A DNA stretch of 54,578 nucleotides from a virus. Its lineage: Duplodnaviria; Heunggongvirae; Uroviricota; Caudoviricetes. A program made the translations under genes and the position numbers. The DNA is taken from the IMG/VR virus record IMGVR_UViG_3300013383_000019; one strand, given 5' to 3'. The notes beneath the pieces were generated by a model. The model worked only from the letters and a program-made list of their open reading frames with translations. It did not search any database and had not been told where the DNA came from. Each line of letters starts with the position of its first letter. Position 1 is the stretch's first letter. Of this stretch, positions 1 through 54,577 are shown in pieces.

Positions 1-1104
1 CCGAAAGAAAAAGGCAAACTCCTCATCGACGAAGACACCCGCTGGATCATCGAAAAGATATACGCGCTTGCGCTGGAAGGAAACGGCTACAATGTAATCG
101 CAAGGTATCTGAGGACGTCCAAAGTCCCTACCCCGGGCTGGGTTGGCTATAGCCGCTACGGCGCGTATTCGCAATACTATGAGAACGCCGCCGAAGAGAA
201 GAAAAGCTTCTGGCAAAGCTCCGCCGTGCGTTCCATACTGATGGATGAAACATACATTGGAAATACGATTCATTACCGCAGGCAAAAGATTTCGTACAAA
301 AGCAAAAAACGAATTCACAACTCCGCTGATGAGTTTTACCGGGTAGAAAATACCCATCCGCCTCTTATATCGCGCGAGACATTCGAGCGGGTTCAGGAAA
401 ATATTTCACGGCGGCGTCGTTCCTGCGGGGATGGGACGCCCCAGCTTTTCGCCGGTCTGCTAAAATGTTCAACCTGCGGGAAAGCGTTGAAAGCCCGTCC
501 CTGCTATGCTCCCGACGATAAAGCCTACGTCTGCCGGCAATATTCGGAATTCGGTAAAGAACACTGCACCGCGCATTACATAAGGCAGTCTACCCTCTAC
601 AATTATGTGCTATCACGGATACAGTATTGGACCTCGACACTCGCTGGGAACGAAATAGATTTTGCCCAGGAGATTATGAATTCTTCGCGCAAAGCAACTC
701 AGTCTAGTGGGGACAAGGAGCAAGCGAAGCTTGATGATAAAAAGCGGCGTCTACGAAAAATAGACGGGATGCTCGCCTCACTCTATGAGGATCGCGCCGA
801 AGGAAACATCACTCCGAACAATTTCTCGACGCTGCTCAAAAAATACCAAGACGAGCAAACCGCCCTTCAAGAATTCATCGCTGCCGCCGAAGAAGCACAA
901 CGAGCTACCGACGAAACCCAAAGAGGTCTTAACGAATGGGCTAACATGGTCAAACGTTACACCCATCCAACCAAACTGACTATCCCGATGCTCAATGCGC
1001 TGATCGACAAAATCGTAGTCCACGATAGACGCTGTGACCAGAATGGCAAACCAACGCAGAAAATAGAAATTTACTACAAGTTCGCCGGGAAGCTCGACCA
1101 ATAG
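1..1104 (+). CDS. Large serine recombinase (integrase), 5'-truncated by window
   Basis: Frame +1 open from base 1. Recombinase-domain motifs, zinc ribbon (CSTC...C...C), coiled coil and DUF4368-like C-terminus (LIDKIVVH...IEIYYKF). Ends in TAG, with an in-frame TGA at 1117-1119. Confidence 0.9.
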   Translation, partial: PKEKGKLLIDEDTRWIIEKIYALALEGNGYNVIARYLRTSKVPTPGWVGYSRYGAYSQYYENAAEEKKSFWQSSAVRSILMDETYIGNTIHYRRQKISYKSKKRIHNSADEFYRVENTHPPLISRETFERVQENISRRRRSCGDGTPQLFAGLLKCSTCGKALKARPCYAPDDKAYVCRQYSEFGKEHCTAHYIRQSTLYNYVLSRIQYWTSTLAGNEIDFAQEIMNSSRKATQSSGDKEQAKLDDKKRRLRKIDGMLASLYEDRAEGNITPNNFSTLLKKYQDEQTALQEFIAAAEEAQRATDETQRGLNEWANMVKRYTHPTKLTIPMLNALIDKIVVHDRRCDQNGKPTQKIEIYYKFAGKLDQ

Positions 1105-9058: not shown

Positions 9059-10120
9059 TTATGCCGGCACGCGGATATACACAACGCCTTGATATCCCGC
9101 GCCACCGTTATAGTAAGTATTTTTGCCGTAGTACGGATAGCTATAGTTATCTTGTCCGTCTGTACCGCCGCCACCTCCACCGGAGCCGTAAAATGTCGCT
9201 GCGCTTCCGGCTGATTTTCCACCACCGGTTCCACCTCCGACACTTCCCCCGGGTGCGTTGCGAGATTGGTATACAGTCGGAGACCAGCCTTTACCACCCG
9301 CCGCACCGTTAGAACCGCCATTTCCAGCATAAGCACAGTTGCTATAAGTCGTATACTCGTCCGGGTCATATCGAATATTGTATTCGCCCGAACCGCCACC
9401 GCCTCCCGCACAATGGCATTGGAAGATCGTTGAGTCTCCAAACGGATATTTTGTTACACCGTCGCCCGTGCCGCCATTACTTGACGTACCACCGCCGCCA
9501 GTACCGCCGTTCGCGCCGCTAGCTCCGTTGGCCGAGAAAACTGTTTCGCTGCTACGGGTAATGGTGCTATTTCCACCAGCGCTCGCCACCGCGATTGCAT
9601 ATGTACCGGACAAGCTTTGACTGTCATACTGGGCGCAAAACGCGCCGCCTCCGCCAAGTCCACCGCCGGAGGAACCACCTTTCGCACCGTTCGCCCCGCC
9701 TCCGCAGAGCCAGACCGCGACGTTTTCATACGTGCCTTCCACCGTCAGCGTTCCGCTCCCGGTAATCGTGTATTGCGTATACGTCACGCCGTTTACGGTA
9801 ATCTCCTTTGTGATGTGCGCGCCGGAGTAGCTCATCGACTTCTTTTCCTGCACCGTCACGGCCTGCGTGACGGTTTTCGTCCCTCCGCCGAAGGATACCG
9901 TCAGCGTGACGGCCGTGGTTTCCAGCGTGAGCGTGGCAGGCGAGACGGTATAGGCGTTCGTTGCGATGCGCGTGCCGTCCGCAAAAACGAGCGAGACTAC
10001 CATTCCCGCCGGGTCGAACGCTTCGCCCAGATTATACGTCGTTTTCGTGGGCGGGGTGGTGATTTCGACGCTCTGCCAGACCAGAATATCGGTCGAGCCT
10101 GTCGAGCTGTTATAGATCAT
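9059..10120 (-). CDS. Glycine-rich tail protein, paralog 4, with N-terminal Ig-like domain
   Basis: Start MIYNSS; ITTPPTKTTY..GE.FDP.GM.V Ig-like motif followed by the Gly-rich module. Confidence 0.8.
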   Translation of the reverse strand: MIYNSSTGSTDILVWQSVEITTPPTKTTYNLGEAFDPAGMVVSLVFADGTRIATNAYTVSPATLTLETTAVTLTVSFGGGTKTVTQAVTVQEKKSMSYSGAHITKEITVNGVTYTQYTITGSGTLTVEGTYENVAVWLCGGGANGAKGGSSGGGLGGGGAFCAQYDSQSLSGTYAIAVASAGGNSTITRSSETVFSANGASGANGGTGGGGTSSNGGTGDGVTKYPFGDSTIFQCHCAGGGGGSGEYNIRYDPDEYTTYSNCAYAGNGGSNGAAGGKGWSPTVYQSRNAPGGSVGGGTGGGKSAGSAATFYGSGGGGGGTDGQDNYSYPYYGKNTYYNGGAGYQGVVYIRVPA

Positions 10121-13281: not shown

Positions 13282-14457
13282 TTATGCTGTCGTTGTATCC
13301 ATCGCCATGACGTTCACAGTCACCGCATCCGCGGGCGCGTCGTCGATGCACGCGAACGTAAGGCTTCCCGCCGCCTGCGCGGAACAGTAGATTCCGCTCT
13401 CCCGCCACGCAGCCACCGAAGCCGGCGCGGGTTCCACAATAATTGTGTTGCTCGCCGTTACCATGTTCAGCCCTGTGCTGATGGTCTGCGCCTTCTCAGT
13501 CCATCCCGCCGCCGTCAGGGTGATGGACGTAACGGTCGGAGGAGCCGCATAATCTAGCCCCGCCACAGCCAGCGTCACCTTTCCGCCGGTCGCCCGCAGC
13601 ATGCCGGAACGCTGTGTCCCTGATGTGTTGGGGAAATCGGTCGCCGTGTTCGCCGTGATCTTGTTCGGTCCCATAATATTCTTCGAGGCGGGCGTTGTGT
13701 AGCCGTCGATGGGTGCCCAGCTCAGCGTACCGTCGTCCGCCACCGTGGGCACAAACGCAGGCCCCGCAACGCCCTGAGGCCCCTTGATGTTCGCAGCCGC
13801 CGGTGCGGTTTCTGTGTTGTCTTTTGTCCAGCTGATTCCGCCGTCCTCCGCCACGGTCGGCTTCCATACGTCGCCCGCGGGGCCTTTGATATTCTTTGTC
13901 GCGGGCGTGGCGTAGCCTTCAATCGCGCTCCAGCTCAGGTTGCCGCTGTCGTCCACGCTTGGAATGAACGCGGGGCCTGCGGGGCCATGAAGAGATCCCA
14001 TGTTCAGCCATGCGCTGTTGTTCCACATGTAGACCTCGTAAGCTCCGGCTGTGCCCACTGCATAAAAGTCGCTCTGCGCGGGGTTTGACACGCCCGCCTG
14101 CAAGGCCGCTAGCGTCGCGTACACGCCCTTGATTGTAAAGTTCTTGCCGGGATCGCCCTGTTCGCCCTTCGGTCCCGTGATGTTGCGTGCCGTCGGGTTT
14201 TCCAGTTCAGCATTGTTTGTCCATGTGATATTGCCGCTTGCATCCACCGTGGGGGTGAAGGTCGCGCCCCTGCGGCTGATAAGCGAATAGTTCGGGTCGT
14301 CGTTCGCGCCCGTCGGAGCCGTGCCGCTCACGTCTTTAAGCACAATGTAGCCGTTGCCCTCATATTCCACAATGTCCTATTTTTTGTATTCCGCGCTCGC
14401 ATCGTATTTGCCGCGCGGTACGGTTACAACGCGGCCGAGAGAAATTTTGTCTGCCAT
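13282..14457 (-). CDS. Tail fibre with collagen-like repeats (391 aa), in-frame TAG at codon 27 (14377-14379)
   Basis: AGGAGAG RBS; MADKISLGRVVTVPRGKYDASAEYKK*DIVEYEGNGY is the common phage N-terminal motif LG.V...RG.Y.....Y..LD.V.Y.G. Confidence 0.85.
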
Positions 14458-14472
14458 GCCGGTTCACTCTCC

Positions 14473-15489
14473 TTAATTGTAATATACATCCATGCTGGGT
14501 ATGATCTCGCCGTAGAAGTCTGAAGCCAGGAAGTACAGCGTGCCGATGTGCTGGCCGTCCCATAGATCGCCGTTCTGATAGACGAGCGTGTTGCTGAAGG
14601 AATACCATTTGCTGTTGACTTTGACAACGCCATACACTGCGTCTGCATAATCCATGGACGGTGTGTCCTCGTTCGCATTGAAGTAGAACTGCGGAGGCGA
14701 ACCATAGAAGTCGACGACATTGGTAACCGTTTTCGATTTGACATACACCGAGATAGTCGCGCCCGAACCAACCGTAGCGCTCACGCCTCGAGAAGTCGTA
14801 AGCGTCAAATACTCCAGCCTGTATGTACTAGGCGTATCACCGTAAAACCACACCTCGGGGCTCGCATAGTTCTCCTCATAGTAATCCACCGCGCATTCCA
14901 CTGTCCGGTCATCGTCATCCACGTCCTTGACGCTCGCCTTCACTTTGTTTATGTCGTAGTTCTTCAGCACATTGCTGTAGATCGTCGCTTTCCAAACACC
15001 GTTTGTGTAAATGCTGATCTGCGCCGCCTCGCACCCCATAACAAACGGCTTCTGTACCACGTCGAACCGGCCGCTCTGGCTCCCCATGCAGTGCGCGTTT
15101 GCCGCGTCCATAACTGTCGCTTCCCATGTCGCGTAGGTGCCGGCATTCGGCAGCGTAAACGTGTAACTGCACGAGGTTGCCCGCGTCGGTTCCGGCGATT
15201 CGTAAACAAGCGGGTCTTTCCCTTCAACTGTCAGCGTGAACTTGTATCTGTACCGACCTGTGCCGCCGCTCACGTTCAGCATGTTGATGTAAAATTCTCC
15301 GCCCCACCAGTCCGCACCGTAAGCGTCTACTGTGTATTCCAGATTGGGCGAATAGAACAGCCGGGGTTTGTTGTTCTCGTCGCCAATCCAGCCCGCGACC
15401 ACGCGCACCGGCTTATTGTTCGCGTCGCCGTAAAACAGTCCCGCCACGTATTGCGGCTTGCTGTCTGCGTTTCCAATATATAACGCCAT
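14473..15489 (-). CDS. Tail-associated protein (338 aa)
   Basis: GGGAG RBS, beta-rich, lies in the tail block. Confidence 0.7.
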   Translation of the reverse strand: MALYIGNADSKPQYVAGLFYGDANNKPVRVVAGWIGDENNKPRLFYSPNLEYTVDAYGADWWGGEFYINMLNVSGGTGRYRYKFTLTVEGKDPLVYESPEPTRATSCSYTFTLPNAGTYATWEATVMDAANAHCMGSQSGRFDVVQKPFVMGCEAAQISIYTNGVWKATIYSNVLKNYDINKVKASVKDVDDDDRTVECAVDYYEENYASPEVWFYGDTPSTYRLEYLTLTTSRGVSATVGSGATISVYVKSKTVTNVVDFYGSPPQFYFNANEDTPSMDYADAVYGVVKVNSKWYSFSNTLVYQNGDLWDGQHIGTLYFLASDFYGEIIPSMDVYYN

Positions 15490-15495
15490 TCCCGT

Positions 15496-16878
15496 TCACT
15501 CTCCCGTGTCCAGCTGTAAATACAGGTAGCCCTTTGGCAGCACATAGCTGTCGGAAGGCTCCGACGTCCCCGTCCAGATTTCGCTCCGGAGGAACGCGTC
15601 CGTCAGCTCCCGCTTCGTCGTGCCAGTGCCATGATACATCTTCCAGTCCGCTGAAATCTGTACCGCGTCCTGCTCGTTGCCGATCATTCCAAAGGATACC
15701 CCGCGCCCACCGGCCGGAAAGAAAATCGGGTATATACCGGAAGAAAGCGTTGTGATTTTCGATACCGTCGAAAGCTTGTCGCTTACCGTAATCTGTATCT
15801 CGTGTACCACCGGGTCTTCCGTCGTCGGAAACTCTACCGCATATGCCTGCGTAACGTCTACGTCCTGCGTGCCCAGTGCCGTCCACGCCTCGTCGCCCAC
15901 CGTCCGGAATTCGACCTTCACCACTTTGCCGCCGCTGGTTACCGGTTCCAGCGCGTTCTTCCCGCCCAGCGGATAAAAGTTCACGCTGCAGCTTGCGCTC
16001 ACGTAATTGCTTTCGTCGTCCGGCATACAGTCGTCCGTGCTTCGATAGGCTTTCACGTCGTAGATCGAGGGCGAGCTGTAGTCGAGCACCTTCAGCGTCT
16101 TCCCCGTCCATGGTCCCGGAAAGTCGACTCCTGTTGTGGAACTGGCGATTTCGAGCGTTACATCTTCCGTTGTCACGCGCCGCTTCGCCGAGTCCAACGA
16201 CGTCGCATAGCAACGCACTTCGTCTCCAAAGATATCGATCTTCTCAAATACATGGCGCACAGTTAGTTGGGTTTTACTGCCGTATACGCAGCTGTTGCGG
16301 GATGCCTCGGGCACCGCGTCGTATGAGGCCGGTATCGAGTCCAGCTCTCCGTCGGACGTATATTTGATCGAGAAGGATTTATAATAACGCCCCACAGATA
16401 CCGCGAGGTCGCCAAAGTGGTAATACCCCGCCTTGAATGTTGCCGTAACTACAACGTCGCTCATCTTGCGGATGCAGTAAAGCGCGCCGTCCTGCAGCTC
16501 CCATTGCTCCGCCGCGCCGCCGCTCAGGTTTCGCACACCGAATACGGCGCTGGGTATTGTAACCGCTTCCTTGGGCGGCACGTTTACGCTGAACCGGGCT
16601 TGCTTCGTCGCCAGCGTACGTTCCGTGTCCGGCGCGATAATGCTGAGCGTAACCAGCACCGAACAGGATTCCGTCAGCGTCTCTGGAATAGTGAATGTAA
16701 AAATACCTTCCATGTCGTGCGTATACATTCGATCGTATTCGTTCCCGCCGACGTTAAACCGCAGATGGTTGTATAGCCACCTCATGTTTCCGCCAAATGT
16801 TATCGTCTGTTTTTCTCCCGGTTTTAAGGTGTCGTATTGTACCTTAATCCAACCCTCGGTTTCTTGCTCAACGCTCAT
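15496..16878 (-). CDS. Minor tail / baseplate protein (DUF859-like, 460 aa)
   Basis: C-terminal EIQITVSDKLS...GRGVSFG motif resembling DUF859 siphovirus proteins; follows the Tal-like gene. Confidence 0.65.
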   Translation of the reverse strand: MSVEQETEGWIKVQYDTLKPGEKQTITFGGNMRWLYNHLRFNVGGNEYDRMYTHDMEGIFTFTIPETLTESCSVLVTLSIIAPDTERTLATKQARFSVNVPPKEAVTIPSAVFGVRNLSGGAAEQWELQDGALYCIRKMSDVVVTATFKAGYYHFGDLAVSVGRYYKSFSIKYTSDGELDSIPASYDAVPEASRNSCVYGSKTQLTVRHVFEKIDIFGDEVRCYATSLDSAKRRVTTEDVTLEIASSTTGVDFPGPWTGKTLKVLDYSSPSIYDVKAYRSTDDCMPDDESNYVSASCSVNFYPLGGKNALEPVTSGGKVVKVEFRTVGDEAWTALGTQDVDVTQAYAVEFPTTEDPVVHEIQITVSDKLSTVSKITTLSSGIYPIFFPAGGRGVSFGMIGNEQDAVQISADWKMYHGTGTTKRELTDAFLRSEIWTGTSEPSDSYVLPKGYLYLQLDTGE

Positions 16879-24632: not shown

Positions 24633-27600
24633 TCACTTGGATAACCTTATGCCGCCCACAGACTGAACCCGTCCGGATTTTTCCAGCACATGGTCGAAGA
24701 ATTTTTCGGCCAGTTCGTCATAGTCCGTGTCGTTGTCCAGCTTGTCCACCTGGATTACAACGTCGCCGAACGTCAGCGTCGGCTGAGAGCGGGAATTCGT
24801 CTCCGCGCCAAACGCCGGCATTGTCGGTACGTTAATTGTTTTGATCGCGTGCAGCGTGTCGATCATGTCCTCAAACAGTTCGGTCTGATAAGGCGAAAGG
24901 ACGCGCTCCGGCTTGCTCGGCGTACCGTCCAGCCATGCAAGGCCGGTCTTTGTGTTCAGGCCGCCCGAAGCATATTGCGATACGGTTGTTTTCCCATTAC
25001 CGCTTGCCGAGGGTCTAAGCGTGTCCTGGCTCGAGTTCCGAGGCGCGCTGCTGGTGCTGCTATAGCTTCTAATGGAACTGATAGCACCGCTGAGCATTGT
25101 TTGGTACTGAGCGCGCACCTGCGCCTGCCCAGCCGAGCCTCCCGCCGCCGCCAGGTGATTATTCAGCCAGCGCTTAGCGATTCTCTTAGCCGCGCTGTTT
25201 GCGGCAGACCTAGAGCTATATCCGGTATACACCTGGCCGTCAAACGTAAAAGACCAGAGCGTCTTAGGCTTCGAGCTGCCGTTAGGCTTTTGAGTAGAAC
25301 CAGGGCTGGGACTCGGACTCGGGCTGGAATCATATCCACCGTCATAACTGCCGCCATTACTCCCCGACGCCGGCATCACCGGCTGGTAATCATAGCTGCT
25401 GATATCCACCGCAACATCCTTGTAGGCGTTCTTCAGGTTCTCCAGCTGCTCTTTCCACGCGTCGACGTATGCCTCCGCCTGCAGCTTGCCCGCCGCCTTA
25501 TAGTCCGCACTGTTGTCCATCAGGAACTGGATAATCGCGTCGTCGCCCTTCGAGATAATTTCTTCAATTTCGTCCCAGTATGTGACGATCGCGCCGCGCA
25601 TGTCGTTGAGCATATCCTGCCAGCCGTTTGTGATATCCGTGCGCGTGGCGTCCGTGGAGTTTTTATACTCTTCGCTGTTCTCCTTCAGCCACTGCAGAAT
25701 TTCCTCGTCGGACTGCGCCATGATCTTCTGCACTTCTTCAATGAAATTGCGCGGGTTCGCCAGCAGGTCTTCGTAGTATTTTTCAATGTAGTCGGCGTAT
25801 TCTTCCGTGCTCGTGATCTGTTGATCGATCGCGTCCTGCTGGGCCTCGACTTCCTTCTCCGCCGTGTCCCATGCGATTTCGTCGCGCAGGTCTTTAATCT
25901 GCTCCTGCAGTTCCATCGCTTCTTTGCGCCGCGTCGAGTCGGCCGATATGCGCGCCAGTTTCGCTTCCAGCTTTTTCAGTTCAACCAGCTTTTCTTCTTC
26001 TTGCTGCGCTTCCTTGCGCGCGTTCAGCTGTTCCTGCAGCGCCTGCTTTTCTTCTTCCAGCGCGTCCTTTTTCGCGTCCGCCGTCTCAAGGATTTCGTCG
26101 CGTTCTTTTTCGTATCGCGCCTTGATGATATCGAGTATCGCTTCCTCTGTTTCGATCGTGCCCTGCAGCATGCGCTCCTTCAGCTCTTCCCGGTCCTCGA
26201 TCGCTTCCAGAATCGTGTTCCGCAGGTCGATCTCCATCTGCCGGATCTTGTTCTTCCATTCCTTAATTTCCTTGTTCAGTGCTTCGATATCGTTCCGGTT
26301 CTGCTTCAGCTGCTTGCTGTATTCCATGTGCTGCTGCTGCAAGCTCTTCAGATCGTCCGCCGCCTCAGAATAACCTTCCGCGGAGGTACTCATCGCGTTG
26401 ACTTCCGCCCGCTTGGCTTCCATCAGGCTTTCGATCTTCGAGAGGTTCGCCTGTATCGTATCCGTGTTAGCCTGTATCGCCTGCTTTTCGTATTCGATAC
26501 ATTTCAGCACGCCCTGAATTTCGCCGCGGCTTTCGAAGTACGCTTTCTCCAGCTCGATGATGGCTTTCTTGTGGTTCTGAATCGTATCAATCTGGTCGAG
26601 CACGTCCAGAAACCGCTCAATCTCGGAGGGGCCGCTGTTCCCGCTGCTGCCACTGCCTCCGCCGTAAGAACTGCTGGGGCTGCGGCGGCTGCTTCCGCCT
26701 CCGCCGCCACCACTGCGTCGGCTGCTGGAACCGCTTCTTCTGCCGTTGCTCTTCGAGCCAAGACCGGTGACGTTTACCTTGCCATTTTTGTCCAGGCTTA
26801 CAGTCGCGCCGTTTACGCTTGCCAGCTGCTCAATAAGCCCAAGAATAGCATTGGCAGTCTCATTGCCCTCAGCCGCCAATGCCTTTAGCTGCGAAATCCA
26901 TGTGCTGGGGTCAAGACTGATTCCTGTCAGCGTCAGCATTGAGCTGATCAACCATTCGACGCTGCTGGTCGCCATGTCCGTGTCCCCCGCCAGCAATGCC
27001 GCCGCCATAGCCAAATCATATTCAGAGTTGATCGCGAATCCGCAATAGTCCGCCAGATTCGCCAGTGCCGTAGTGTATGCGTCGGTGCCAGCCTGCGTCG
27101 TGTCCATCACGGTCGCAAGGTCTGCCTGCGCCAGCGCCAGGTCGTTCAGCTTTGTCCCGATGCCGGCGATGGATTTCAGATACTCCGCCTGGGACTTCCC
27201 GCTGTTGCTGATTACATCGACGGCTTCCTCCCAGATTTTATTCTGCTTGGCAAGCTGCGTGCCTTCTTTTGTCAGCCCCTCACGCGTCAGTTTCTTCGCC
27301 GCGTCCAGCGCGTCTTCGTGTGCGTCCGACATGTCGCCCAAACTGGTCACATAATCCTTGATCGCGTCCGAGCCTTCCAGCAATGTCTTCTGCATTGTTT
27401 TGCCGAGGCTGTTCCATACGGCGATAAACGCCTCCTCCGAGCCGGTGTCCAACGCCTCCTGAATGTTCGCCAAGGCCGCATTGTATTCCGTCGTACCGTT
27501 CTGCGCCTCATAAAGCGCGTCTGCTGTTTCCTGCAAGCTCCCGCGGCATTGTTCAAGCATTTCCACATAAGCTGATACAACGTCTTCCCAATCACTGTCC

Positions 27601-30600
27601 GGGTCGAAAAGTACGTTCCAGAAGCTGCCGTAGTCCTCGCGGAAGCCTTCTGCCAGCGTGGCGTTTTCCGTGTACATCTCGTAGATCTTTTCCCGCAGCA
27701 TTTCAATGGCTTCGGCTTTATCCTCCAGATTTGCCGAATCCATGAATACACCCGCCAGATCGTTGATCTGCCCAGAGTAACTGTTATCCGCCGCGGTCTG
27801 CGCTTCCGCGTTCAGCTTTTCGTTTTTCGCATATTCGGCCTGCTCCGCAAAGAAATCTTCCTTCGACGCCGAGGAAATATTCGCCAGCATTTCATAGACC
27901 TTTGCCAGTGCTTCCGCCCACGCACCCGTTTCGTCGGTCACTTCTACCGTCCCGGCGAGGATATTGTAAAGTTCAGGATAGGTCTGCGCGAAGCTCTCCT
28001 GCATGTCAGAAGACCATGTGTTAAATTCCTTCCGCGCGTTTTCCAGTCCGCCCGAAAGTCCCATCACGCCATTGGCGAACGTCGGTACCTGACCTTCCGT
28101 GAACGCCTTGTCCAGCGCGCCCACCTGGTCGGCAAACCCGGCCTCTTTCGCTTTCGCCAGCGCTTCCTGCGCTTTCAGATTTTCCGCCATCTCCGAACGC
28201 TCTTCGGCGTACGCCACCGTGGTTCCGTTGATAATACCCTTCAGGTAGCTGTATGCGTCGCCTTCCTTCATCAGCCCTGCGTAGATATCGCCCAGCATCG
28301 GGTAGGCTTTCGTCATCTCTTCCACCAGGTCTGCGTTCGCCGCATGCGCTTCATCCATTGCGGTCTTGAAAAGGCTCACGTCAAATTTCTTCGTGTCCGC
28401 GTTCATCGATTTGCTCAGAATGTCGCTCGTCGCATCCCGGTAATTGTTCTTCGCCGCGTCGGATGCTTTCTGTTTCTCCAGCCATTCCGCGTAGTATTTG
28501 CCGAAGCTCCCCATTTTTTCGGCCGCCGCATCCGCGGCCTCCCCCACGGCCGTAACCGAAGCCACCGCCGTTTCTTTCCACTTAACGAATTCCTCTTCAT
28601 TATAGTCGGGGAGCAGGTCGATCTTCGCGCCTTCAATTTCACCGTTCTCAACTTGCGCGTTGTATTCGGAAATATATCCGTTGATACCGTCGACGATTTT
28701 CTTGTAGCCGTCATAATCCACAGCTTCCGGCGCTTTCAGCATCTCGTTGTATTCGTCCATCAGCTTGGTGAATTCCGGCGAGGAAGCGAGTTCAGCTAGT
28801 GTGTCTCTGCACGTCGTGAACATTTCCGTGACCGAACTGAGCAATTCCTCTGTAACCGCTGCCGGGTTCTGTTCATACAACTTCTGCAGGAATGTAAACA
28901 GCTCGTCGCTGTATTCGCTCAGCGCGCTCTTGAAGTTGTCCGGGAGCACGTCGGCCATATCGGCTCCTTCAAGATTTTGCTTTACCGCGCCCACATAACT
29001 TTTAACCAGAGAAGCGGCCTTATTCAGCATTTCTTCCGTCAGCGCGTCTGCGTCTCCGCCAACTGAATTCCGCATCGATTCCACGATCGTGCCTATGAAC
29101 GAATCGATATTCTTCGTAATTTCCGCCGGCACATCCATAAAGCTGCTGTCCTGTCCGAACGCGTTCAAGCTCTGTTCAATGCTGTCCCACGCGTCGGAAA
29201 TACCGGCAGCCGCTTTCTCTGCGCTCGCCCCAACCAGCGTGTTGAGGTTCATCATCTCCATGTTGATGTCGTTACTGAGCTTATTAACGTATTGGCTCGC
29301 TTCAAGATATTCGTCTGCTATCGAATAATAATTCTCGGCGTCCGCAGTCATACCGCCCCACCATTCTCGGTTTTTAGCGCCCAGACTGCTGCTTTGAATA
29401 TACATATCCTGCAGATAATTTGTGAACCCGCGTTTAGATGCTTTCGCCGGATCTTCCAGCCCCTGTGTATATTCATCCCAGTATTTCAGTACATTCTTCT
29501 GGAGATCAACCTTGTCCATCTCCGCGTACGCGTCCTTAACCGTCTGAACCTGCTCCGCGAACTTGCTGAACGCGTCCAGCTGCGAGATCGAATTCTGCAG
29601 GTCCACCTGTTCCCGCAGTTCCTCGTTCATCGCCCGGATAGCTTCGCTGCCGCTGTTGTACTGGCCTTCCAGTCCTTCCAGCTTTGTCTGTAAAGTATAG
29701 GAGGTTCCGGACAACTGCGCGAATATCGCGTCCATCCGCTCCGTGTCGCTCGTCGTCTTGTTTTGCTTTCCGGCGAGTTTCGTGTATTCATCGATCAGCG
29801 GGGAGATCGTCCCGGTGTAATCCTTCAGCGTGCTCAGCTGTTCGCTGTAATCCGGCAGCTCTACCGCAGACGCTTTTTTGATCGCGCCGGTAACGGCCGT
29901 GATAACCGTAACAAGCCCCGCCAGCGCAGTGACGATCAGCCCGATCGGGTTCGAGGCCGATGCAATGCCAGCAACAAGCCCAATGCTTTTGATTGCCTTA
30001 ATCAGCGATACGATCTTGGTGAGCACCACCACAACTGCTCCAAGCGCAGCTGCCGCCGCGGGGATTGTAACGTTAAACCCTCTCAGGGATTCCGTGCCGC
30101 TCGCGATCAGGTCGACAAATCCGGCCAGTCCGTCATAAGCGCCTTTCATCCAGTCCGCGCTCAGCAGTCCATAAAGGCTTTCCAAAGACGACTTCAGCCG
30201 TCCCTGTGCCGCCTCAACCGATTCCATATACACGCTGTATTTCTGCGTCGCTGTGCCGGCCGCGTTCAGCGCGCCCTCATAAAGTTCAAACGCACGGCTG
30301 CCGCCCTCTGCGCCCTTAGCCATGTCGCTCATCAATGCGAGGAAGGTGTTCTGCTGTCTTGCGCCGGCGATGGTGGTCGAGATATACGCCTTCTGTTTTG
30401 CGTCCAGCGTGTCCCATTGTTCGGCAATTTCCGTCATGATGTCGGACATGCTGCGCCAGTTGTTCTCTTCGTCCAGCAGTTCAATACCGAGCGTGCCCAG
30501 CGCTTTTGTCACGTCGTTGATCTGGGTCGCGTCCTCTTCATTAAAACCCTTCTGCTTTATGGAGTGCATGCGCGCCATCAGAGAGTTGAACGCCGTACCG

Positions 30601-32641
30601 ATTACCTCAGGTGCCTGCCGCGTTTTTTCGCTGACGGTCGCAATATACGCGCCAAGCCATTCAAAGCTCACGCCAAATTCTTCGGCGGACGCAGATGCTT
30701 TCTGCATCGCCACACCAATTTCATCGGCCTTTCTGTTACTTTTATGACCTACAAATATTCTGTAGGCGGATAGGATTTTCATCCTACCTCTGCAACTTAA
30801 ATAAGGTATGTTGCAGAACAGACTGTATCTTCATCCCTAAATAGGGAGTCCACCGTAGCTACATCATCACTGATGCAACATTCAGTCGTTACCGCGCTTA
30901 ACACGCATCGGAGTTACCCTCCTCAGGGCTTTCCCCGAACAAGTGGATTCTTTTATAACACATTACTGTGTATACGGGCTATTTGTCGTTAACCCGATGC
31001 CGATTCGTCTCCCAAGTATGCAAACACATCTACGACCTTCTGCGCAGACAAGTCCATTGTATTGGTGGCTGCCGTAACCAGTTCAGCCGCCTCTGTAAAT
31101 TCCAGCGAACTGATCTTCGCGTATTGCGTCGCCGCCTTGATACGCCGGTTTGTTTCGTCCTCATCCAGGCCCTGCCGCCAGAATTCCACGGCCGCCTTCG
31201 CAATGTCGGTAGAAGATACGCTCATCTCTTTTGCCAGCGTGCGGTATTCCGCGCCCAGCTTTGCCGCCTGCTCTTCGCTGTACCCCGAAACAATTCGGAT
31301 CTCGTTCATCAGATCATAGTATTCCGACGCGTAGGAGATCGCATCCTGGAACATGTTCTTAAGCGTATTGGTTGTCCATGTAATCGCCTGTTCTGCAAGC
31401 TTGGTTCCAATTTTGTCAAGGAACTGCCCGTTAATATCCAGCATTTCGCCCTGCTTGGAATACAGGTCGTTGACCTGGTGCAACGTGTTCTCAATTGCAG
31501 TAAGTTCTTCTTGGGAAAGCTGGAGCTTTTTCAACTGCTCGGCTACCTCATCGGTGGCTTTCTTCGCCTCATCCCCGACTTTCGCCCACGCTTCCATGCC
31601 GTCCTTATCTTTGTTCGCGTAAGACCTGCCGATACCGCTCAGCGCGGTCTGCATTTGCGCTAACGCCTTCTGTGCTTTCGCCAGCTGCTCTGCCCCGGCG
31701 TTTCCAGTGTTCGTGTTCTGCTTTGCCAGCACGTCGGAAATTTTCTGCTCCAGCGTAAGCAGCTGCTGTTTCCGTTCGGTTGTCAGGTCAAGCTTTTGAA
31801 TTTCCTCGCTCTGCTGGGTCAGCAGCTTTTTAGACGCTTCAATCCGCTCCTGCCAGTAGGACGTATCCTGTCCGCTTTTCTGTGCGCTGTTGTAGTTGCG
31901 GACATACTCGGCCAGCCGCTTGTATTCCTCCGTCATCTGCTTCAGGCCGGTTTCTCCGCTGCCGCTTTCTTTCAGCGCGCTCTGATATTGCTTGATGATT
32001 TTCGCGCGCTCTTCGCTCAGCTTATTCAGGTTTGAAAGCTGTTTCGCTTCGTCGCTCAGCGTCGAAGACTGTTCCCTGCTTTTTGCGATCAGTTCGCCGT
32101 ATTTCTGGATTTCCGAGTCCAGCCGCTTCGCCTGGTCGCTGCCCTCCGCAGCAGAAAGCCGCTGCGTTCGCAGAGAATACATTTCCTTAAGATAGCCGAT
32201 CTGTTCCTTATAAAGCGCGTTCGCCTTATCGATTTCCTTTGCGAGCTCACCCTTGGTTGTGGTCGTCCGGCTCAGCTATTCTCCCTGCTTCCGAACCTCC
32301 GTTATCGCAGCCCCGAGGTCTTTATAGCCTTTGGTGGTCTGCGTCATGCTGCCGTCTTTCGCTAGCTTGGAGGTGACGCTCATCACCCGTTCAATCTCGG
32401 TTGTCGCGCCGGCAAATCCAGTAGCCATTTCCTTCCCGGCCTGCCCGCCCGTCTTGGCCGCGCTCTGAACCTCGTCCTTGAGCCGCGTCAGCATCGCCTT
32501 AATCTGCTTCTCCACTACGTCGCTCATGTTCAGGTTCACGCCGGTGCCAATAGACTTCAGAAGCTTATTGACTCCCTCGACGTCCTTATTGAGCTTGCTC
32601 AGATCCAGCCGCAACGAGGCGATATATTTTTCGTCCGCCAA
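24633..32641 (-). CDS. Tape measure protein, about 2581 aa: exon 32641-30992 (TAG at codon 122, 32276-32278) plus exon 30728-24633
   Basis: ORFs 32276..32641, 30989..32182 and 24633..30782 join: KQGE*LSRTTT readthrough is in frame, and splicing restores AYLGDESASG|ADEIGVAMQK in the TP901-type tape measure domain. Confidence 0.9.
30729..30991 (-). ncRNA. Group I intron (263 nt, no ORF) in the tape measure gene
   Basis: P1 CGGGU|UA with UAGCCCG (U-G at splice site), P7 GACUG/CAGUC (GAAGAUACAGUC), terminal G, frame restored. Confidence 0.9.
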
Positions 32642-49330: not shown

Positions 49331-49438
49331 ATGGTTTTGATTTCAGTTCTCACACTGTAGAATGATATCGCCAAAGAGATTTTCTTGGTGCTGCTCGGCA
49401 TTCTTATCGAACAGTATCTTGAAGGTCGCTTAAAGTAA
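49331..49438 (+). CDS. 35-aa hydrophobic peptide, type I toxin-like, in-frame TAG at codon 10 (49358-49360)
   Basis: GAAAGGA RBS; MVLISVLTL*NDIAKEIFLVLLGILIEQYLEGRLK; TAACAGC/GCTGTTA hairpin at the stop; TG-N-TAAAAT extended -10 near 49247. Confidence 0.55.
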
Positions 49439-49539: not shown

Positions 49540-49617
49540 TGGTCGCACGATTCAGAGTCGAACTGACTAAGCCGAGGTATAAGCTCGGAGCGAAAATACC
49601 GTTTCGCGTTTCGTGCG
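49540..49617 (-). tRNA. tRNA with UAU anticodon (Ile, AUA-reading), atypical D and T arms
   Basis: 7-bp acceptor CGCACGA/TCGTGCG, A73, encoded CCA, stem CCGAG/CTCGG with loop CT-TAT-AC. Confidence 0.75.
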
Positions 49618-49823
49618 ATGCGGGGTCTTGTACGTAACTCGACCCCTGTGCTTTCCTTTTTCGTCAGGAAGCCAAACGCCATATTTGTATGGAATCCGCG
49701 TCAGCAATTTCGGTTCGACGCGATTAACCGGCAGACGACCCTCCGGAAGGCTTCGCCCGGGAGCGCTTCCCGAAGCAGGACGCATCTGCGCGCCCTCCGC
49801 TTGTTGCCTCTGGCCATTGGCGT

Positions 49824-49900
49824 TGGTGAGCGGTGAGGAGTTCGAATCCTCAACTCGCGAGATTAGAAGTCGCTGTGTCTGCCAATTGCACCAACCGCCC
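49824..49900 (-). tRNA. Amber suppressor tRNA (anticodon CUA) with Leu-type identity elements
   Basis: GGGCGGT TG GTGCAATTGGCAGACAC A GCGAC TT-CTA-AT CTCGC GAGTT GAGGA TTCGAAC TCCTC ACCGCTC A CCA; anticodon at 49864-49866; A73, A15-U48, A20a, G21. Confidence 0.85.
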
Positions 49901-49915
49901 AAGTCAAGATATCCT

Positions 49916-49974
49916 GGACGCGTTTCTAAAATGCAAGTTACAAATTTGCTCTAGAATGTTTGCTGTAAGCGTCC
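49916..49974 (-). ncRNA. ACAGCAA hairpin motif, copy A
   Basis: GGACGC-TTACAGCAA...GCGTCC-AG; same pattern at 51317, 51404 and 51518. Confidence 0.6.
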
Positions 49975-49977
49975 AAA

Positions 49978-50133: not shown

Positions 50134-50209
50134 TGGAGCCGTCTCTCGGACTCGAACCGAGCGCCTGCGCTTTACAAGAGCGCTGCTCTGCCAAATGAGC
50201 TAAGACGGC
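50134..50209 (-). tRNA. tRNA-Thr(UGU)
   Basis: Cloverleaf, anticodon TGT, encoded CCA. Confidence 0.95.
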
Positions 50210-50396: not shown

Positions 50397-50467
50397 TTGC
50401 GCAGCCGGGATTCGAACCCGGATTACAGGAACATGAATCCCGCGTGCTGCCTTTACACTACCGCGCG
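50397..50467 (-). tRNA. tRNA(CAU), initiator-like
   Basis: Anticodon CAT, C1-A72 mismatch, G run at 28-30 rather than 29-31, CCA not encoded. Confidence 0.8.
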
Positions 50468-50481
50468 TCGTGTGTTATAAT
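50452..50481 (+). promoter_or_regulatory. Sigma-A promoter for 50569..50823; -35 lies inside the antisense tRNA(CAU) gene
   Basis: TTTACA-18 bp-TATAAT with extended TG. Confidence 0.65.
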
Positions 50482-50568
50482 AATGGCACAGCAGTATACT
50501 TCGAGTTTTCGCGAAGAACAGCCTTGGTTATTTTATTAGGGCGGAAAATAATTCAAGGAGGTTTTCTC

Positions 50569-50823
50569 ATGAACACTTAGAAGAAACTGTTTGTATAGCT
50601 GCTGTGCCTCGCCATCATGACTCCATTCCTTGGAGAATTTCTCTCCTTGCCGTCATGGTGGGCAGCCATAGCAGGTGCGCTGTGCGTCGTTCACGAAATT
50701 CTTTCGTTGGTCATTCCGACTCAGTACGCTAAGTTTGTTGAATGGACAAATCCGCAGAAACAGTGGAAGACCCGCCTGAAAAGGCGAAGACGACGACATA
50801 ACGCTGGAAGCCGTTTCCGTTAA
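50569..50823 (+). CDS. 84-aa membrane protein, paralog A, two in-frame TAGs (codons 4 and 10)
   Basis: AAGGAGG RBS; MNT*KKLFV*LLCLAIMTPFLGEFLSLP...WKTRLKRRRRRH; TAGs at 50578 and 50596. Confidence 0.85.
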
Positions 50824-50836
50824 GGAGCGGCTTTTG
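50808..50836 (+). terminator. Terminator of paralog A
   Basis: AAGCCGTTTCC/GGAGCGGCTT plus TT. Confidence 0.75.
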
Positions 50837-50844
50837 CTATTTAT

Positions 50845-50931
50845 TGGCGGAGAGAGCCTGATTCGAACAGGCGCGCCTTACGGCCTATCGGTTTAGCAAA
50901 CCGACCTCTTAAACCGCTTGAGTATCTCTCC
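50845..50931 (-). tRNA. tRNA-Ser(GCU)
   Basis: Class II cloverleaf with long variable arm, G73, encoded CCA. Confidence 0.95.
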
Positions 50932-50946
50932 ATAATATGCTATACT
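50918..50946 (+). promoter_or_regulatory. Sigma-A promoter for 51034..51288; -35 lies inside the antisense tRNA-Ser gene
   Basis: TTGAGT-17 bp-TATACT with extended TG. Confidence 0.7.
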
Positions 50947-51033
50947 GTTCGTACGGGCTGGAACGCTCTGACTTTCCGCGGTTGCCGCATGTGTGTTTTA
51001 TTGGCGAGAAAAACATCACATGGAGGTACACCA

Positions 51034-51288
51034 ATGAAAACATAGAGAATTCTGCTCGTCATCCTTTTGTGTGCGGCGTTCGCCGTATCGTTCCTGGCGG
51101 ATTATTTCCCGCTACCGCGTGCGATTGTCAGTATAGCAAAAGGTGTTTGTGCCGCCAAGGAATTCTTGGCGCTGCTCTTTCCCGCGACGTATGCCACGTA
51201 GCTGGAACGACCACTTGGGCGGAAGCGCTGGAAAACTCGCCTGATAAGAAGATCCAAACGGCGCAAACAAACAGGGGCTGCCCGATAA
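51034..51288 (+). CDS. 84-aa membrane protein, paralog B, two in-frame TAGs (codons 4 and 56); missed by the ORF track
   Basis: GGAGG RBS; MKT*RILLVILLCAAFAVSFLADYFPLP...YAT*LERPLGRKRWKTRLIRR; same length as A and alignable without gaps. Confidence 0.85.
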
Positions 51289-51306
51289 GGGCGGCTCTTG
51301 TTTCTT
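51274..51306 (+). terminator. Terminator of paralog B
   Basis: GGGGCTGCCC/GGGCGGCTCT plus TGTTTCTT. Confidence 0.75.
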
Positions 51307-51316
51307 AAATAAGACT

Positions 51317-51374
51317 GGGCGTGTTATGAAATAAAGATTACGAATCTTCTCCAAATAGATTGCTGTTAGCGCCC
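51317..51374 (-). ncRNA. ACAGCAA hairpin motif, copy B
   Basis: GGGCG-CTAACAGCAA...CGCCC-AGTCTTA. Confidence 0.6.
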
Positions 51375-51377
51375 GCT

Positions 51378-51501
51378 ACCGCGCGCCCGGACTTGAACCG
51401 GGAATGCGCAGGATGTCATCAAAAAACTTGCTGTCAGCGCACCACTATATAAACCGTGCGCGTTTCTTTTCCCTGTCGCTCTACCATTGAGCTACACGCG
51501 G
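51378..51501 (-). ncRNA. tRNA-like RNA with a 59-nt insert replacing the anticodon loop
   Basis: Acceptor CCGCGTG/CGCGCGG, canonical D arm and T arm, CAGG/CCTG stem enclosing 51413-51471; overlaps ACAGCAA motif copy D. Confidence 0.75.
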
Positions 51502-51517
51502 ATAATGCAGTAAGACT

Positions 51518-51607
51518 GGGCGCATGTTTTTGATGAATCACTGATGTCAAACCAGTGACTGAAAGTTTTCATTAGAACTTATATCAATTGTGTTGCTGTC
51601 AGCGCCC
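51518..51607 (-). ncRNA. ACAGCAA hairpin motif, copy C
   Basis: GGGCGC-TGACAGCAA...GCGCCC-AGTCTTA. Confidence 0.6.
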
Positions 51608-51672
51608 AATATTCAGTTGTCAATGTTCGCCGTGAACTTTTGCGTTCACTATTAAAGGGAACATTTTAAGGG

Positions 51673-52461
51673 TCATTTTTTCACTTTTGCAAAAACTTTT
51701 TCAACTTTTTCCAAAGTTTTTTCATCCGCGATTCCATTCGCTGGCAATGTGTTGTCCTGCTGAAATCTCTTCACCGCTCGCTGTGTGAGCGCACCGAACT
51801 TACCGTCCGCCGCCCCACAGGAATACCCGATTTCATTCAGCCGATTCTGAAGCATACGGACATCGTTCCCACTCGACCCACGCTTCAATATAGTTCTTTT
51901 TATAGGGCTCGGCTTAGCTTCTGGTTCGGATTCGGGTTCACTGCTTCCTGTATATGTAAGTGCCGGCATCTCGAACCAGTGTGTAAAATTCCGATCCGCG
52001 ACATTCGCCTCGACAATCCCTGTGGCAAACCCGCGAGCCTCAACCAGTTTCCCGCCTCCGATATAAACACCCACATGCCCGCTACGCCACAGTATCAAGC
52101 CAGGACACTCCGGCAACGTGTTGATTATTCCCCATTTCAGCCCGCGCTGCTTCGCATAGGAAAACATCCCGTTCGCGCCTCTATCGGGGCAGCCATTCGA
52201 CCCATATCGCATCTTGCCGGTTTCTTCGTCCGTCCACATATACCCCTTGATGAGCCCGATACAGTCTGCGCATTTTTTGCCGGCTTCTATATCTGCGCGA
52301 TAGCGCGGCATCCTTGCCGCCGTATAATGCGCCGGGTACTGAGCTGCCTTGCGCTTCAACAGCGCGGTTGTACAATCATGGCAATGCGTGCCATACCAAT
52401 AAGGTTGTCCAACCCATTCTTTTACAAATGCAACCAGACCGGCCGCAGTCTTTATCGCCAT
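51673..52461 (-). CDS. NlpC/P60-family peptidoglycan hydrolase with PG-binding domain
   Basis: DC.GLIKG catalytic Cys, GHVGVYIG, C-terminal L..GS.G.DV..LQ..L...ADG.FG..T..AV..FQ. Confidence 0.9.
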   Translation of the reverse strand: MAIKTAAGLVAFVKEWVGQPYWYGTHCHDCTTALLKRKAAQYPAHYTAARMPRYRADIEAGKKCADCIGLIKGYMWTDEETGKMRYGSNGCPDRGANGMFSYAKQRGLKWGIINTLPECPGLILWRSGHVGVYIGGGKLVEARGFATGIVEANVADRNFTHWFEMPALTYTGSSEPESEPEAKPSPIKRTILKRGSSGNDVRMLQNRLNEIGYSCGAADGKFGALTQRAVKRFQQDNTLPANGIADEKTLEKVEKVFAKVKK

Positions 52462-53211: not shown

Positions 53212-53598
53212 TCAGTTTTTCGTAGACACATAAGTAGCATCCCACCGGGATTCGTTACATTTACAAATTTTCTGCACCGCCCGCCGAAACCAGACACTCA
53301 CCGTCGGGTGCTTGACGTTATTCATTTCAGCAATGTCCATAACTGTGTAGCCGCGCATCAGCTTATTCACGGTATATAGTTCCGCTTTCGATAGCCCGCA
53401 TTCCGCGATCAGCCGGTCAAGATCAGCATATGTGCAAATCACAGCGTCGTTGAAGCGGGGAACCCCGGTTGTTTCCGTGGGTCCCGCCGCCGCCAGTTCA
53501 GGGTAGAAAGATGGGTCGAGTTTGCCCCGCCCGGAAATCAGAAGCGACACCACGCGCGGTTCGCTCAGGCTGACATACCCTTCAGCATTTACATTCAT
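53212..53598 (-). CDS. Protein with sigma-70 region 4-like HTH (128 aa)
   Basis: LS..E...V...M.GYT..DIA......TVS....RA..KI motif. Confidence 0.7.
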   Translation of the reverse strand: MNVNAEGYVSLSEPRVVSLLISGRGKLDPSFYPELAAAGPTETTGVPRFNDAVICTYADLDRLIAECGLSKAELYTVNKLMRGYTVMDIAEMNNVKHPTVSVWFRRAVQKICKCNESRWDATYVSTKN

Positions 53599-54577
53599 CG
53601 AGCATCCCCTCCTTTGCGTGCGCAAGCAAGTCGGAAATATCAACGCCGTACTGTTTCGCAAACGTCAGCGTGCAGCTCATTGCCGCCGGCCACTCGTCGT
53701 CGCGCAGCATATCAAGATAAGAGCCTTTGCTGCCAACCTGCCGCCTTCCGATGCTAATGCCTTCCTTGTTGTACATCAGGCTCTTCCAGCAATTCCACAT
53801 CTTGCCATATTTCCATTCGCCGCCGTCAGGATAACGGATGCCGGCGATACGACGCACAACCGCGTTAATGAGCTTGCGGGTATCCCACTCCATTTCTTCC
53901 TTGAGCAGAACCTTGTTCTCAGCGTCGAGCCTTTCGTTATCATCCACCAGATTTTTGTTGGCCTCGCGCAGCGCTTTATTATTCCGGCTGAGATACTCTG
54001 TGAGCTGGGTCATATAGCTCGACGCCTCAATTATATTGCCGTTCGTAAAAGCTTCCCCAATACGCTTATACAGAATCACCTCTTTGTCGAGATCCTCAAC
54101 CGCTGCAAAACCAGGTACCTTCTCAAACACATTCAACAACTGCGTGCGCACCTCGGTTGCAACCCTCGAGCCGGGCATCAACATACCGATGCGAAGAACA
54201 GCACGGCGAGAAAAAACGCGGGTGCCACGGTTGCTAATTGTAATCACAACCCCGTCGCCGAAATCAATAAGGGAGCTTCCACGGGTGCTGTTTTTGAACT
54301 GAACAGGCTGTTCAGTTCTAACATTGCCAGTACCTAACTGGACTTCCTGTCCAGTTAGCCTATCTGCATCTTTAACCTGAATTCCGGGTTCAGTTAAAAA
54401 ATCCGCCGCCTTCTTCACCGCGGTACCGTCCGAATCGATCTCCGCCTTGTGCCGCTGATACACACGACGCATTGTATCGATATCAACCTCGTAATACTCC
54501 GCCACCTGCCGCGTAGTCATAAAATCTGTGCCGGGAATGGTAAGCAGGCGCTTCACCTTCTCGAGCGCTTCGATGCG
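53582..54577 (-). CDS. Phage antirepressor-like DNA-binding protein, 5'-truncated by window
   Basis: RIEALEKVK.LL..PG..FMTT.QVA.YYEV and FS.RA.LRIGML...S.VA..VR..LLN motifs. Confidence 0.7.
   Translation of the reverse strand, partial: RIEALEKVKRLLTIPGTDFMTTRQVAEYYEVDIDTMRRVYQRHKAEIDSDGTAVKKAADFLTEPGIQVKDADRLTGQEVQLGTGNVRTEQPVQFKNSTRGSSLIDFGDGVVITISNRGTRVFSRRAVLRIGMLMPGSRVATEVRTQLLNVFEKVPGFAAVEDLDKEVILYKRIGEAFTNGNIIEASSYMTQLTEYLSRNNKALREANKNLVDDNERLDAENKVLLKEEMEWDTRKLINAVVRRIAGIRYPDGGEWKYGKMWNCWKSLMYNKEGISIGRRQVGSKGSYLDMLRDDEWPAAMSCTLTFAKQYGVDISDLLAHAKEGMLDECKC

Follow-up and report, generated by a model that had tools for sequence, protein, structure and literature searches.

Twin TAG-containing membrane-protein genes in the tRNA cluster of a temperate phage, possibly gated by a suppressor tRNA and a folded leader

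The virus record IMGVR_UViG_3300013383_000019 of IMG/VR, a stretch of 54,578 nucleotides from the Caudoviricetes to which we refer as the window, holds two short open reading frames (ORFs A and B) on the + strand, amid the − strand genes of a tRNA cluster, and each of them contains two in-frame TAG codons. These twins are very likely real genes that depend on TAG read-through, as judged from the pattern of substitutions in their relatives. Their TAGs probably serve as a gate rather than as neutral codons, and both a phage-encoded suppressor tRNA and a folded mRNA leader would take part in the control. What the gated cassettes produce would be, in the reading that we tentatively favour overall, a holin-like late membrane effector. 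New here are this protein family, its site inside a tRNA cluster, a covarying leader predicted to bury the Shine-Dalgarno (SD) sequence, and early TAGs that are conserved as TAG.

The products of the two ORFs share 41% identity over 82 of 84 residues (BLASTP, E 3e-20), and the DNA aligns without gaps over the ORFs, with a similarity upstream that reaches through the leader and the −10 box. A first-pass annotation, made from the letters of the window, had described two + strand paralogs of identical length, each with two TAGs of which codon 4 is common to both; position, strand, length and TAG codons were all borne out (Table 1). The same holds for its remark that paralog B is invisible to gene calling with genetic code 11. 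Under this code, ORF A is reduced to a 68-aa ORF without SD and ORF B to a 44-aa fragment beginning with TTG, and ORF B is missing from the gene list of a relative as well as from all gene calls examined. Met17, the start of the 68-aa ORF, was rejected as the true start of ORF A: it has no SD and no matching Met in B, and codons 1-16 look coding. The annotation also placed the twins antisense within the tRNA cluster. They do lie on the + strand among − strand tRNA genes; the ORFs themselves, however, occupy the spacers, and only the −35 boxes of their promoters overlap tRNA genes.

The strongest argument for translation comes from relatives: L001, a Logan contig of 20.6 kb that shares about 93% identity with the window; L046, a 564-bp ENA contig of 1.3x coverage, in which sequencing errors are possible; and contigs from runs X5 and X7 that span the whole stretch. 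The annotation had named conservation of the reading frames in relatives among the tests of its proposal, and the frames are under purifying selection, with a ratio of non-synonymous to synonymous substitution rates (dN/dS) of about 0.1 against L001 (0.07 for B, 0.15 for A). Between the window and L001, the changes in the ORF bodies number 9 that are synonymous against 3 that are not (binomial P 4e-4), the other two frames showing no synonymous excess, and all four TAGs are kept in L001. The difference table for X5 and X7, which leaves out 19 less-supported differences, lists no indel within either ORF and four in the two leaders; 13 of the 15 substitutions that it lists in the ORF bodies fall at third codon positions (P 3e-5). 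Between the paralogs themselves dN is 0.58 and dS is saturated, and over codons 1-16, which precede any code-11 start and run across TAGs, mismatches are distributed 5/4/11 over the three codon positions. The tail of B has undergone many base changes between the window and L001 with retention of both the frame and the richness in Lys and Arg, and ORF B is intact in every relative where it was seen. Because this signature of selection runs before, between and past the TAGs, both frames appear to be translated through them.

The family seems confined to one lineage. A profile search of 1.84 billion representative proteins gave only two credible matches, the same-lineage fragments P0003 and P0004; a further match, the 888-aa tandem-repeat protein P0007, was rejected as a low-complexity artefact. 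No twin relatives were found in IMG/VR by peptide patterns or by a DNA pattern that keeps the TAGs, in species genomes, in JGI metagenomes by DNA pattern, at 26 loci with relatives of the neighbouring hydrolase, or at 16 loci with relatives of a neighbouring 394-aa exonuclease. A search for a host genome of the phage likewise found none.

Both proteins have the same layout: a short N-terminus with Lys/Arg, a strongly hydrophobic segment at residues 5-25, an invariant Leu-Pro at 27-28, a more amphipathic hydrophobic segment at 29-50, and a basic tail. Kyte-Doolittle maxima over 19 residues are 2.3 (A) and 2.6 (B) for the first segment, and 2.0 (A) and 1.7 (B) for the second, while the tail (residues 60-84) contains 11 (A) or 12 (B) Lys/Arg residues and no Asp or Glu; the hydrophobic N-terminal half and Arg/Lys-rich tail noticed at first reading are thus recovered in numbers. 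From hydropathy and the positive-inside rule, each product looks like a two-helix membrane hairpin of N-in/C-in topology with a cytoplasmic tail.

Each ORF is furnished with its own expression signals, as the first reading had it. The promoter-like sites are consensus matches of a sigma-70-like, extended −10 kind, of which the region gave 6 against 3.5 expected; the −10 of cassette A is kept in L001, and the site of cassette B is identical in L001 and L046. The SD sequences, AAGGAGG for A (50555-50561) and GGAGG for B (51022-51026), both stand 7 nt before the ATG. Downstream, the hairpin of cassette B, whose sequence is identical in L001, is preceded by an A-tract and followed by a U-tract, and may for this reason act in both directions (−14.8 kcal/mol for its − strand version). 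Two RNA libraries gave short, low-depth contigs on ORF A (X20 and X26) and on ORF B (X20); as the strand is not resolved and DNA carry-over is possible, these contigs are a weak hint of transcription, and the parts that they leave uncovered carry no information.

Between promoter and start codon, both cassettes have a leader for which a common fold is predicted: a 12-bp hairpin whose 3' arm enters the SD, and an 8-bp helix formed by codons 6-9 with the 5' end of the mRNA. The leader together with the first 30 nt of the ORF folds more stably than shuffled sequences, with z scores of −3.45 (A) and −2.97 (B) in the window and −5.7 (A) and −2.0 (B) in L001. Of the cells in the consensus, 98% are paired, a share that drops to 43-57% once the partner is slid; from the A to the B lineage, both partners have changed in 8 pairs, compared with 1-2 pairs in the slid controls. 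Rfam searches on the leaders and on a motif repeated in the cluster returned tRNAs only. The covariation is what would be expected of a structure that, in both cassettes, hides the SD and ties the start of the mRNA to codons 6-9. Such a leader would be an added lock, beyond what the first-pass annotation had described.

Reading through the TAGs requires that the phage treats TAG as sense. The window is part of a temperate gut phage, with an integrase gene at 226-1104 (+) that ends in TAG, and a long − strand late operon encoding terminase, Dit, tape measure and tail fibres. When ORF lists made with code 11 and with TAG as sense are compared, only one of the − strand ORFs of at least 100 aa ends at a TAG, and that one continues in frame into a tape-measure-like gene; the chance of such avoidance is 0.0007-0.009 at a TAG share of 10-15%. 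TAG codon 29 of the Dit gene falls within its phrog_33 match and within alignments to 18 full-length homologues, and TAG 33 of a virion protein falls within a phrog_2729 match. L001 retains the tRNA(CUA) gene, in whose anticodon stem the changes compensate each other, and the relatives L030, L031 and L038-L041 carry one too. By all these signs, the phage reads TAG as sense with its own tRNA(CUA). The tape-measure-like gene itself lies at 30989-32641 (−), where 121 aa and 397 aa under code 11 are joined across TAG codon 122, and is followed by an ORF of 2049 aa at 24633-30782 (−).

As for the residue inserted, Leu or another hydrophobic residue is tentatively favoured, from the build of the tRNA and from the alignment of the paralogs. 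The suppressor shares a D-loop (AATTGGCAGAC), A73 and a 5-nt variable loop with tRNAs of L030 and L031 that bear the Leu anticodons CAA, TAA and AAG, and I/V and F are the residues found opposite those TAGs that the paralog does not share. Between tRNA genes, L030 (2892-3338) and L031 (4982-5398) encode homologous secreted-looking proteins with TAGs at differing positions within the hydrophobic core of the signal peptide. One observation points instead to Gln: CAG stands at precisely the site of the Dit TAG in the homologue nearest to this Dit (72% identical, read with table 11); in L046, codon 4 of ORF A is a Ser codon (TCG). A Q in the protein P0041 was rejected as evidence for Gln, the codon behind it being a TAG that code 15 had turned into Q. 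The tRNA arrays of L030 (2030-7973) and L031 (3054-7973) comprise 15-21 tRNAs, all those with Leu anticodons (CAA, TAA, AAG) having short variable loops (74-78 nt). In further support of Leu, the CTA tRNA of L031 (90 nt) still has a long variable arm, which that of L030 (75 nt) has lost.

That TAG is sense does not by itself make it a switch. The case for a gate lies in where the TAGs are found: 4 of the 168 codons of the twins are TAG, against about 10 of about 16,000 elsewhere in the window, a roughly 40-fold difference, and codon 4 is TAG in both paralogs despite a DNA divergence of about 45%. At 14300-15800, L001 has further small membrane cassettes, on the + strand among − strand genes, with TAG at codon 4, or at codons 2 and 5. 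Like the twins they combine a promoter, a leader and a small membrane ORF with TAG within codons 2-5; they are unrelated to the twins in protein family and leader sequence (no match by hidden Markov model or blastn), and only the twins sit inside a tRNA cluster with −35 boxes in tRNA genes. A 104-aa transmembrane (TM) protein of the window keeps its codon-15 TAG as TAG in a 57%-identical homologue (L047). None of the in-frame TAGs of the window has T as the next base. This distribution favours a regulatory role of the early TAGs. The annotation had spoken of an AND-like response to two suppression events, a wording that goes too far: both TAGs read the same input, so that one would expect at best a squared dependence and not a two-input AND.

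Stop-codon gating of this kind has been proposed before. Among gut phages with recoded stop codons, recoding favours the genes for lysis and structure (Borges et al., preprint 10.1101/2021.08.26.457843; Peters et al. 2022, PMC9523058); Borges et al. found this for lysis genes and a TM protein, the integrase of temperate phages staying readable by the standard code, and proposed gating from statistics over whole lysis cassettes (10.1101/2021.08.26.457843). The present phage has much in common with them: a suppressor tRNA(CUA), in-frame TAGs in late genes, and an integrase gene that the standard code can read, TAG being its stop. In both, a small TM protein is strongly recoded, and the proposed effect is a block on premature expression of lysis proteins. 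The differences are also marked. The TAGs of this phage are few (about 14 codons in 54 kb) and clustered near the 5' ends of genes, the twins are autonomous, oppositely oriented mini-cassettes outside any late operon, the tRNA looks Leu-type rather than Gln-type, and the SD-burying leader would provide a second lock. To our knowledge, stop-codon gating has not yet been demonstrated for any single gene.

In the mechanism that we propose, each ORF would be a self-contained cassette for an 84-residue inner-membrane hairpin protein. A host-type promoter would yield a poorly translated mRNA; because translation without the suppressor would end after three codons, the full-length protein would await the build-up of phage tRNA(CUA), presumably during lytic growth, and a TAG as early as codon 4 would minimise truncated product. 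The protein would then insert in the membrane, most likely permeabilising or depolarising it, and act as a holin-like late effector with the hydrolase whose gene ends 385 nt downstream of ORF B. A membrane-disrupting role in lysis, which we regard as possible rather than probable, is our first choice of function from the sequence features, ahead of a type-I-toxin-like or exclusion role. The predicted layout recalls that of the class II holins, such as S21 of phage 21, small proteins (about 60-150 aa) that have two transmembrane domains, an N-in/C-in topology and a charged C-terminal tail and that make timed lesions in the membrane through which the endolysin is released. The twins resemble them in size, in the predicted two-helix hairpin, in the charged, hydrophilic basic tail that both possess and that would be cytoplasmic, and in nearness to a cell-wall hydrolase gene. 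Unlike class II holins, they have no dual-start motif, a second segment that is only moderately hydrophobic, and no holin-family membership; nor are they co-transcribed beside an endolysin, the hydrolase gene being on the − strand with a tRNA-like gene in between.

Several observations weigh against a holin-like late effector, or against parts of the proposed control. The twins lie on the strand opposite to the hydrolase gene and the late operon, with promoters and terminators of their own, and form no holin-lysin pair. At 1536-2774, the SpoIID+SH3_3 lysin and the 104-aa TM protein are likely to be a more conventional lysis pair, so that the twins are not required as 'the' holin. A host-type promoter with a strong SD would equally fit a function expressed from the prophage. 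In the proteins, the second segment of B is borderline hydrophobic and holds K35, K41 and E42, and searches of Pfam, PHROGs and NCBIfam gave no significant match to a holin, toxin or other family. The leader model, for its part, takes a transcription start inferred at 7 nt after the −10 and was built from the same four sequences, which represent two independent lineages. Finally, a 1-nt deletion in L001 shifts the frame of ORF A and swaps out its basic tail, and in L046 a 17-nt deletion removes that tail and codon 4 is TCG instead of TAG. Because of these losses ORF A is, to judge by its sequence, dispensable or decaying, and the double amber lock claimed for each twin, whose four TAGs all persist in L001, is not fixed in A.

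These losses in ORF A also fit the view that there are no functional protein genes here, and that the ORFs are either decaying duplicates or owe their conservation to an RNA of the − strand, for instance to processing elements or the spacers of tRNA precursors. The restriction of homologues to one narrow lineage (among 1.84 billion representative proteins and several contig collections) and the fact that the middle 100 nt of either ORF are the same in L001 as in the window point the same way. We consider this explanation very improbable: the third-position and synonymous bias is confined to the + frame, B has no indel in any relative while the leaders carry indels, the SDs are strong and ideally spaced from the start codons, and the tail of B has been much substituted with frame and charge kept. 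A less radical alternative is that the twins encode accessory membrane proteins of an ordinary kind, such as an antiholin, an immunity factor or a regulator of lysis, with TAGs that are plain sense codons and a leader that only tunes expression or stability. TAG is indeed sense in structural genes too, Dit for instance; L046 replaces the codon-4 TAG of A by TCG with no other change; and the second hydrophobic segment is amphipathic, with charged residues. This is unlikely in our view, as it does not account for the dense TAGs of the twins, for codon 4 being TAG in both divergent paralogs, for the recurrence of TAG at codons 2-5 of unrelated small membrane cassettes, or for the TAG that another small TM protein and its 57%-identical homologue have at one and the same position.

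More serious, if still rather unlikely, is the idea that the cassettes are type-I-toxin-like or exclusion 'morons' serving the prophage and not lysis. Host RNA polymerase would transcribe them in the lysogen, the folded leader and a − strand antisense RNA (from read-through of the tRNA operon or from a transcript starting inside ORF B) would silence them, and the toxin would be made under stress or upon superinfection, with abortive infection or exclusion as the result. Toxin genes of type I toxin-antitoxin systems (hok/sok, fst/RNAII, aapA1/IsoA1, bsrG/SR4) are often found on prophages; the toxins are usually <60 aa with one TM helix, and a structured leader hides the SD in hok, fst and aapA1. 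The twins share with them a small hydrophobic protein with a charged tail, an own promoter, and a long leader that is predicted to sequester the SD and to hold the mRNA 5' end in a closing helix. A promoter, SD and terminator for each cassette, in an orientation opposite to the surrounding operons, would also suit such a role, as would a promoter-like site on the − strand within ORF B (51158-51130) and, nearby, a toxin-sized hydrophobic ORF of 35 codons (49331-49438). This latter ORF fits the size of type I toxins better than the twins do, which with 84 aa and two hydrophobic segments are larger than is typical. On the other hand, the − strand promoter is a 9/12 match and the antisense RNA hypothetical; a suppressor silent in the lysogen would block the toxin when it is needed; and the searches, which covered Pfam, PHROGs and NCBIfam but not PADLOC, matched no known defence or toxin family. 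We know of no amber-codon control among the type I systems named above.

A late effector and antisense silencing could also be combined in a timer circuit, which we offer as a long shot. Transcription of the tRNA cluster on the − strand would make the suppressor and at the same time run antisense through both cassettes, so that a single transcript would provide both licence and brake: the licence would be the tRNA, probably inserting Leu, and the brake an antisense RNA or the collision of polymerases. With the SD-burying leader and the codon-4 TAG as further locks, the outcome would be a sharply delayed burst of a membrane-disrupting protein. If true, this would be a timing of lysis or suicide founded on the genetic code itself.

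Table 1. The twin cassettes and neighbouring features, in positions of the window
Feature	Position	Strand	Remarks
ORF A	50569..50823	+	84 codons, then TAA; TAG at 50578-50580 (codon 4) and 50596-50598 (codon 10)
ORF B	51034..51288	+	84 codons, then TAA; TAG at 51043-51045 (codon 4) and 51199-51201 (codon 56)
Promoter-like site, cassette A	50452..50481	+	TTTACA, 18 nt, TG-TATAAT; 11/12 matches; −35 inside 5' end of divergent tRNA-Met
Promoter-like site, cassette B	50918..50946	+	TTGAGT, 17 nt, TG-TATACT; 9/12 matches; −35 inside 5' end (D-arm region) of divergent tRNA-Ser
Leader A	50488..50568	+	About 81 nt; predicted hairpin 50523-50534/50545-50557 covers first SD bases; 5' end 50488-50495 pairs with codons 6-9 (50586-50594)
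Leader B	50953..51033	+	About 81 nt; predicted hairpin 50988-50999/51010-51022 reaches first SD G; 5' end 50953-50962 pairs with codons 6-9 (51051-51059)
Terminator-like hairpin A	50805..50846	+	−19.3 kcal/mol; T-rich tail; TAA in loop; abuts tRNA-Ser 3' end
Terminator hairpin B	51269..51305	+	15 bp; −26 kcal/mol, z −6.2; TAA in loop
Amber-suppressor tRNA(CUA)	49824..49900	−	Last gene of the cluster; Rfam tRNA, 39.9 bits; reader needed by both ORFs
tRNA-Met(CAT)	50397..50467	−	Divergent from cassette A; Rfam tRNA match
tRNA-Ser(GCT)	50845..50931	−	Between the cassettes; divergent from cassette B; Rfam tRNA match
Third small ORF of like style	49331..49438	+	35 codons, hydrophobic; TAG codon 10 (49358); extended −10 upstream, SD; ORF and TAG kept in L001
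PG_binding_1 hydrolase gene	51673-52461	−	Ends 385 nt past the ORF B stop; tRNA-like gene in between
Sigma-factor-like gene	53212-53661	−	phrog_3512, E 7e-7; just upstream of the PG_binding_1 hydrolase gene
SpoIID+SH3_3 lysin	1866-2774	−	End of the late operon; adjoins the 104-aa TM protein
104-aa single-TM protein	1536-1850	−	phrog_4105; TAG at codon 15

On the − strand, the order in the cluster is the tRNA-like gene, the ORF B spacer, Ser, the ORF A spacer, Met, Gly, Thr, Ala and lastly the tRNA(CUA). The sigma-factor-like gene upstream of the hydrolase gene may direct late transcription, and its location suggests that late genes use promoters of their own while the twins use host-type ones.

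The cluster shows further peculiarities. At 51378-51501 (−), the tRNA-like gene has a 52-nt insert in its anticodon arm; it is missed in a standard scan and reported as tRNA-Val(GAC) by ARAGORN in intron mode. The insert holds one copy of a motif with a GC stem and ACAGCAA, of the type GGGCGC-N-ACAGCAA ... GCGCCC-AGTCTTA (− sense), which is found in four copies among the tRNAs (49916-49976, 51306-51375, 51420-51450 and 51590-51610), two of them directly after tRNA 3' ends, and has no Rfam match. Its placement recalls the tRNA-associated theta (HDV-like) ribozymes known in recoded gut phages (PMC10879173). An atypical tRNA-like element at 49540-49618 (−), with an 8-bp acceptor stem, a T-arm, an encoded CCA and a possible TAT anticodon loop, lies in a non-coding stretch of about 380 nt after the suppressor tRNA; it is near-identical in L001 and is called by neither ARAGORN nor Rfam. 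In L001, tRNA-Thr(TGT) is split after the anticodon (9080-9550): the insert, about 470 bp long and with a gene for a 119-aa PDDEXK_5 protein, looks like a mobile intron or homing element. The copy in the window (50134-50209) is intact.

The twins suggest that, in phages of this kind, annotation with code 11 overlooks small membrane genes as an entire class, and that tRNA clusters may conceal protein genes on the opposite strand. They also offer an experimental handle, with two short genes, two TAGs in each, one tRNA, and a leader hairpin for which natural compensatory variants exist. If the gate is real, the twins would be a compact and testable case of a stop codon used by a phage as a regulatory switch for dangerous proteins.

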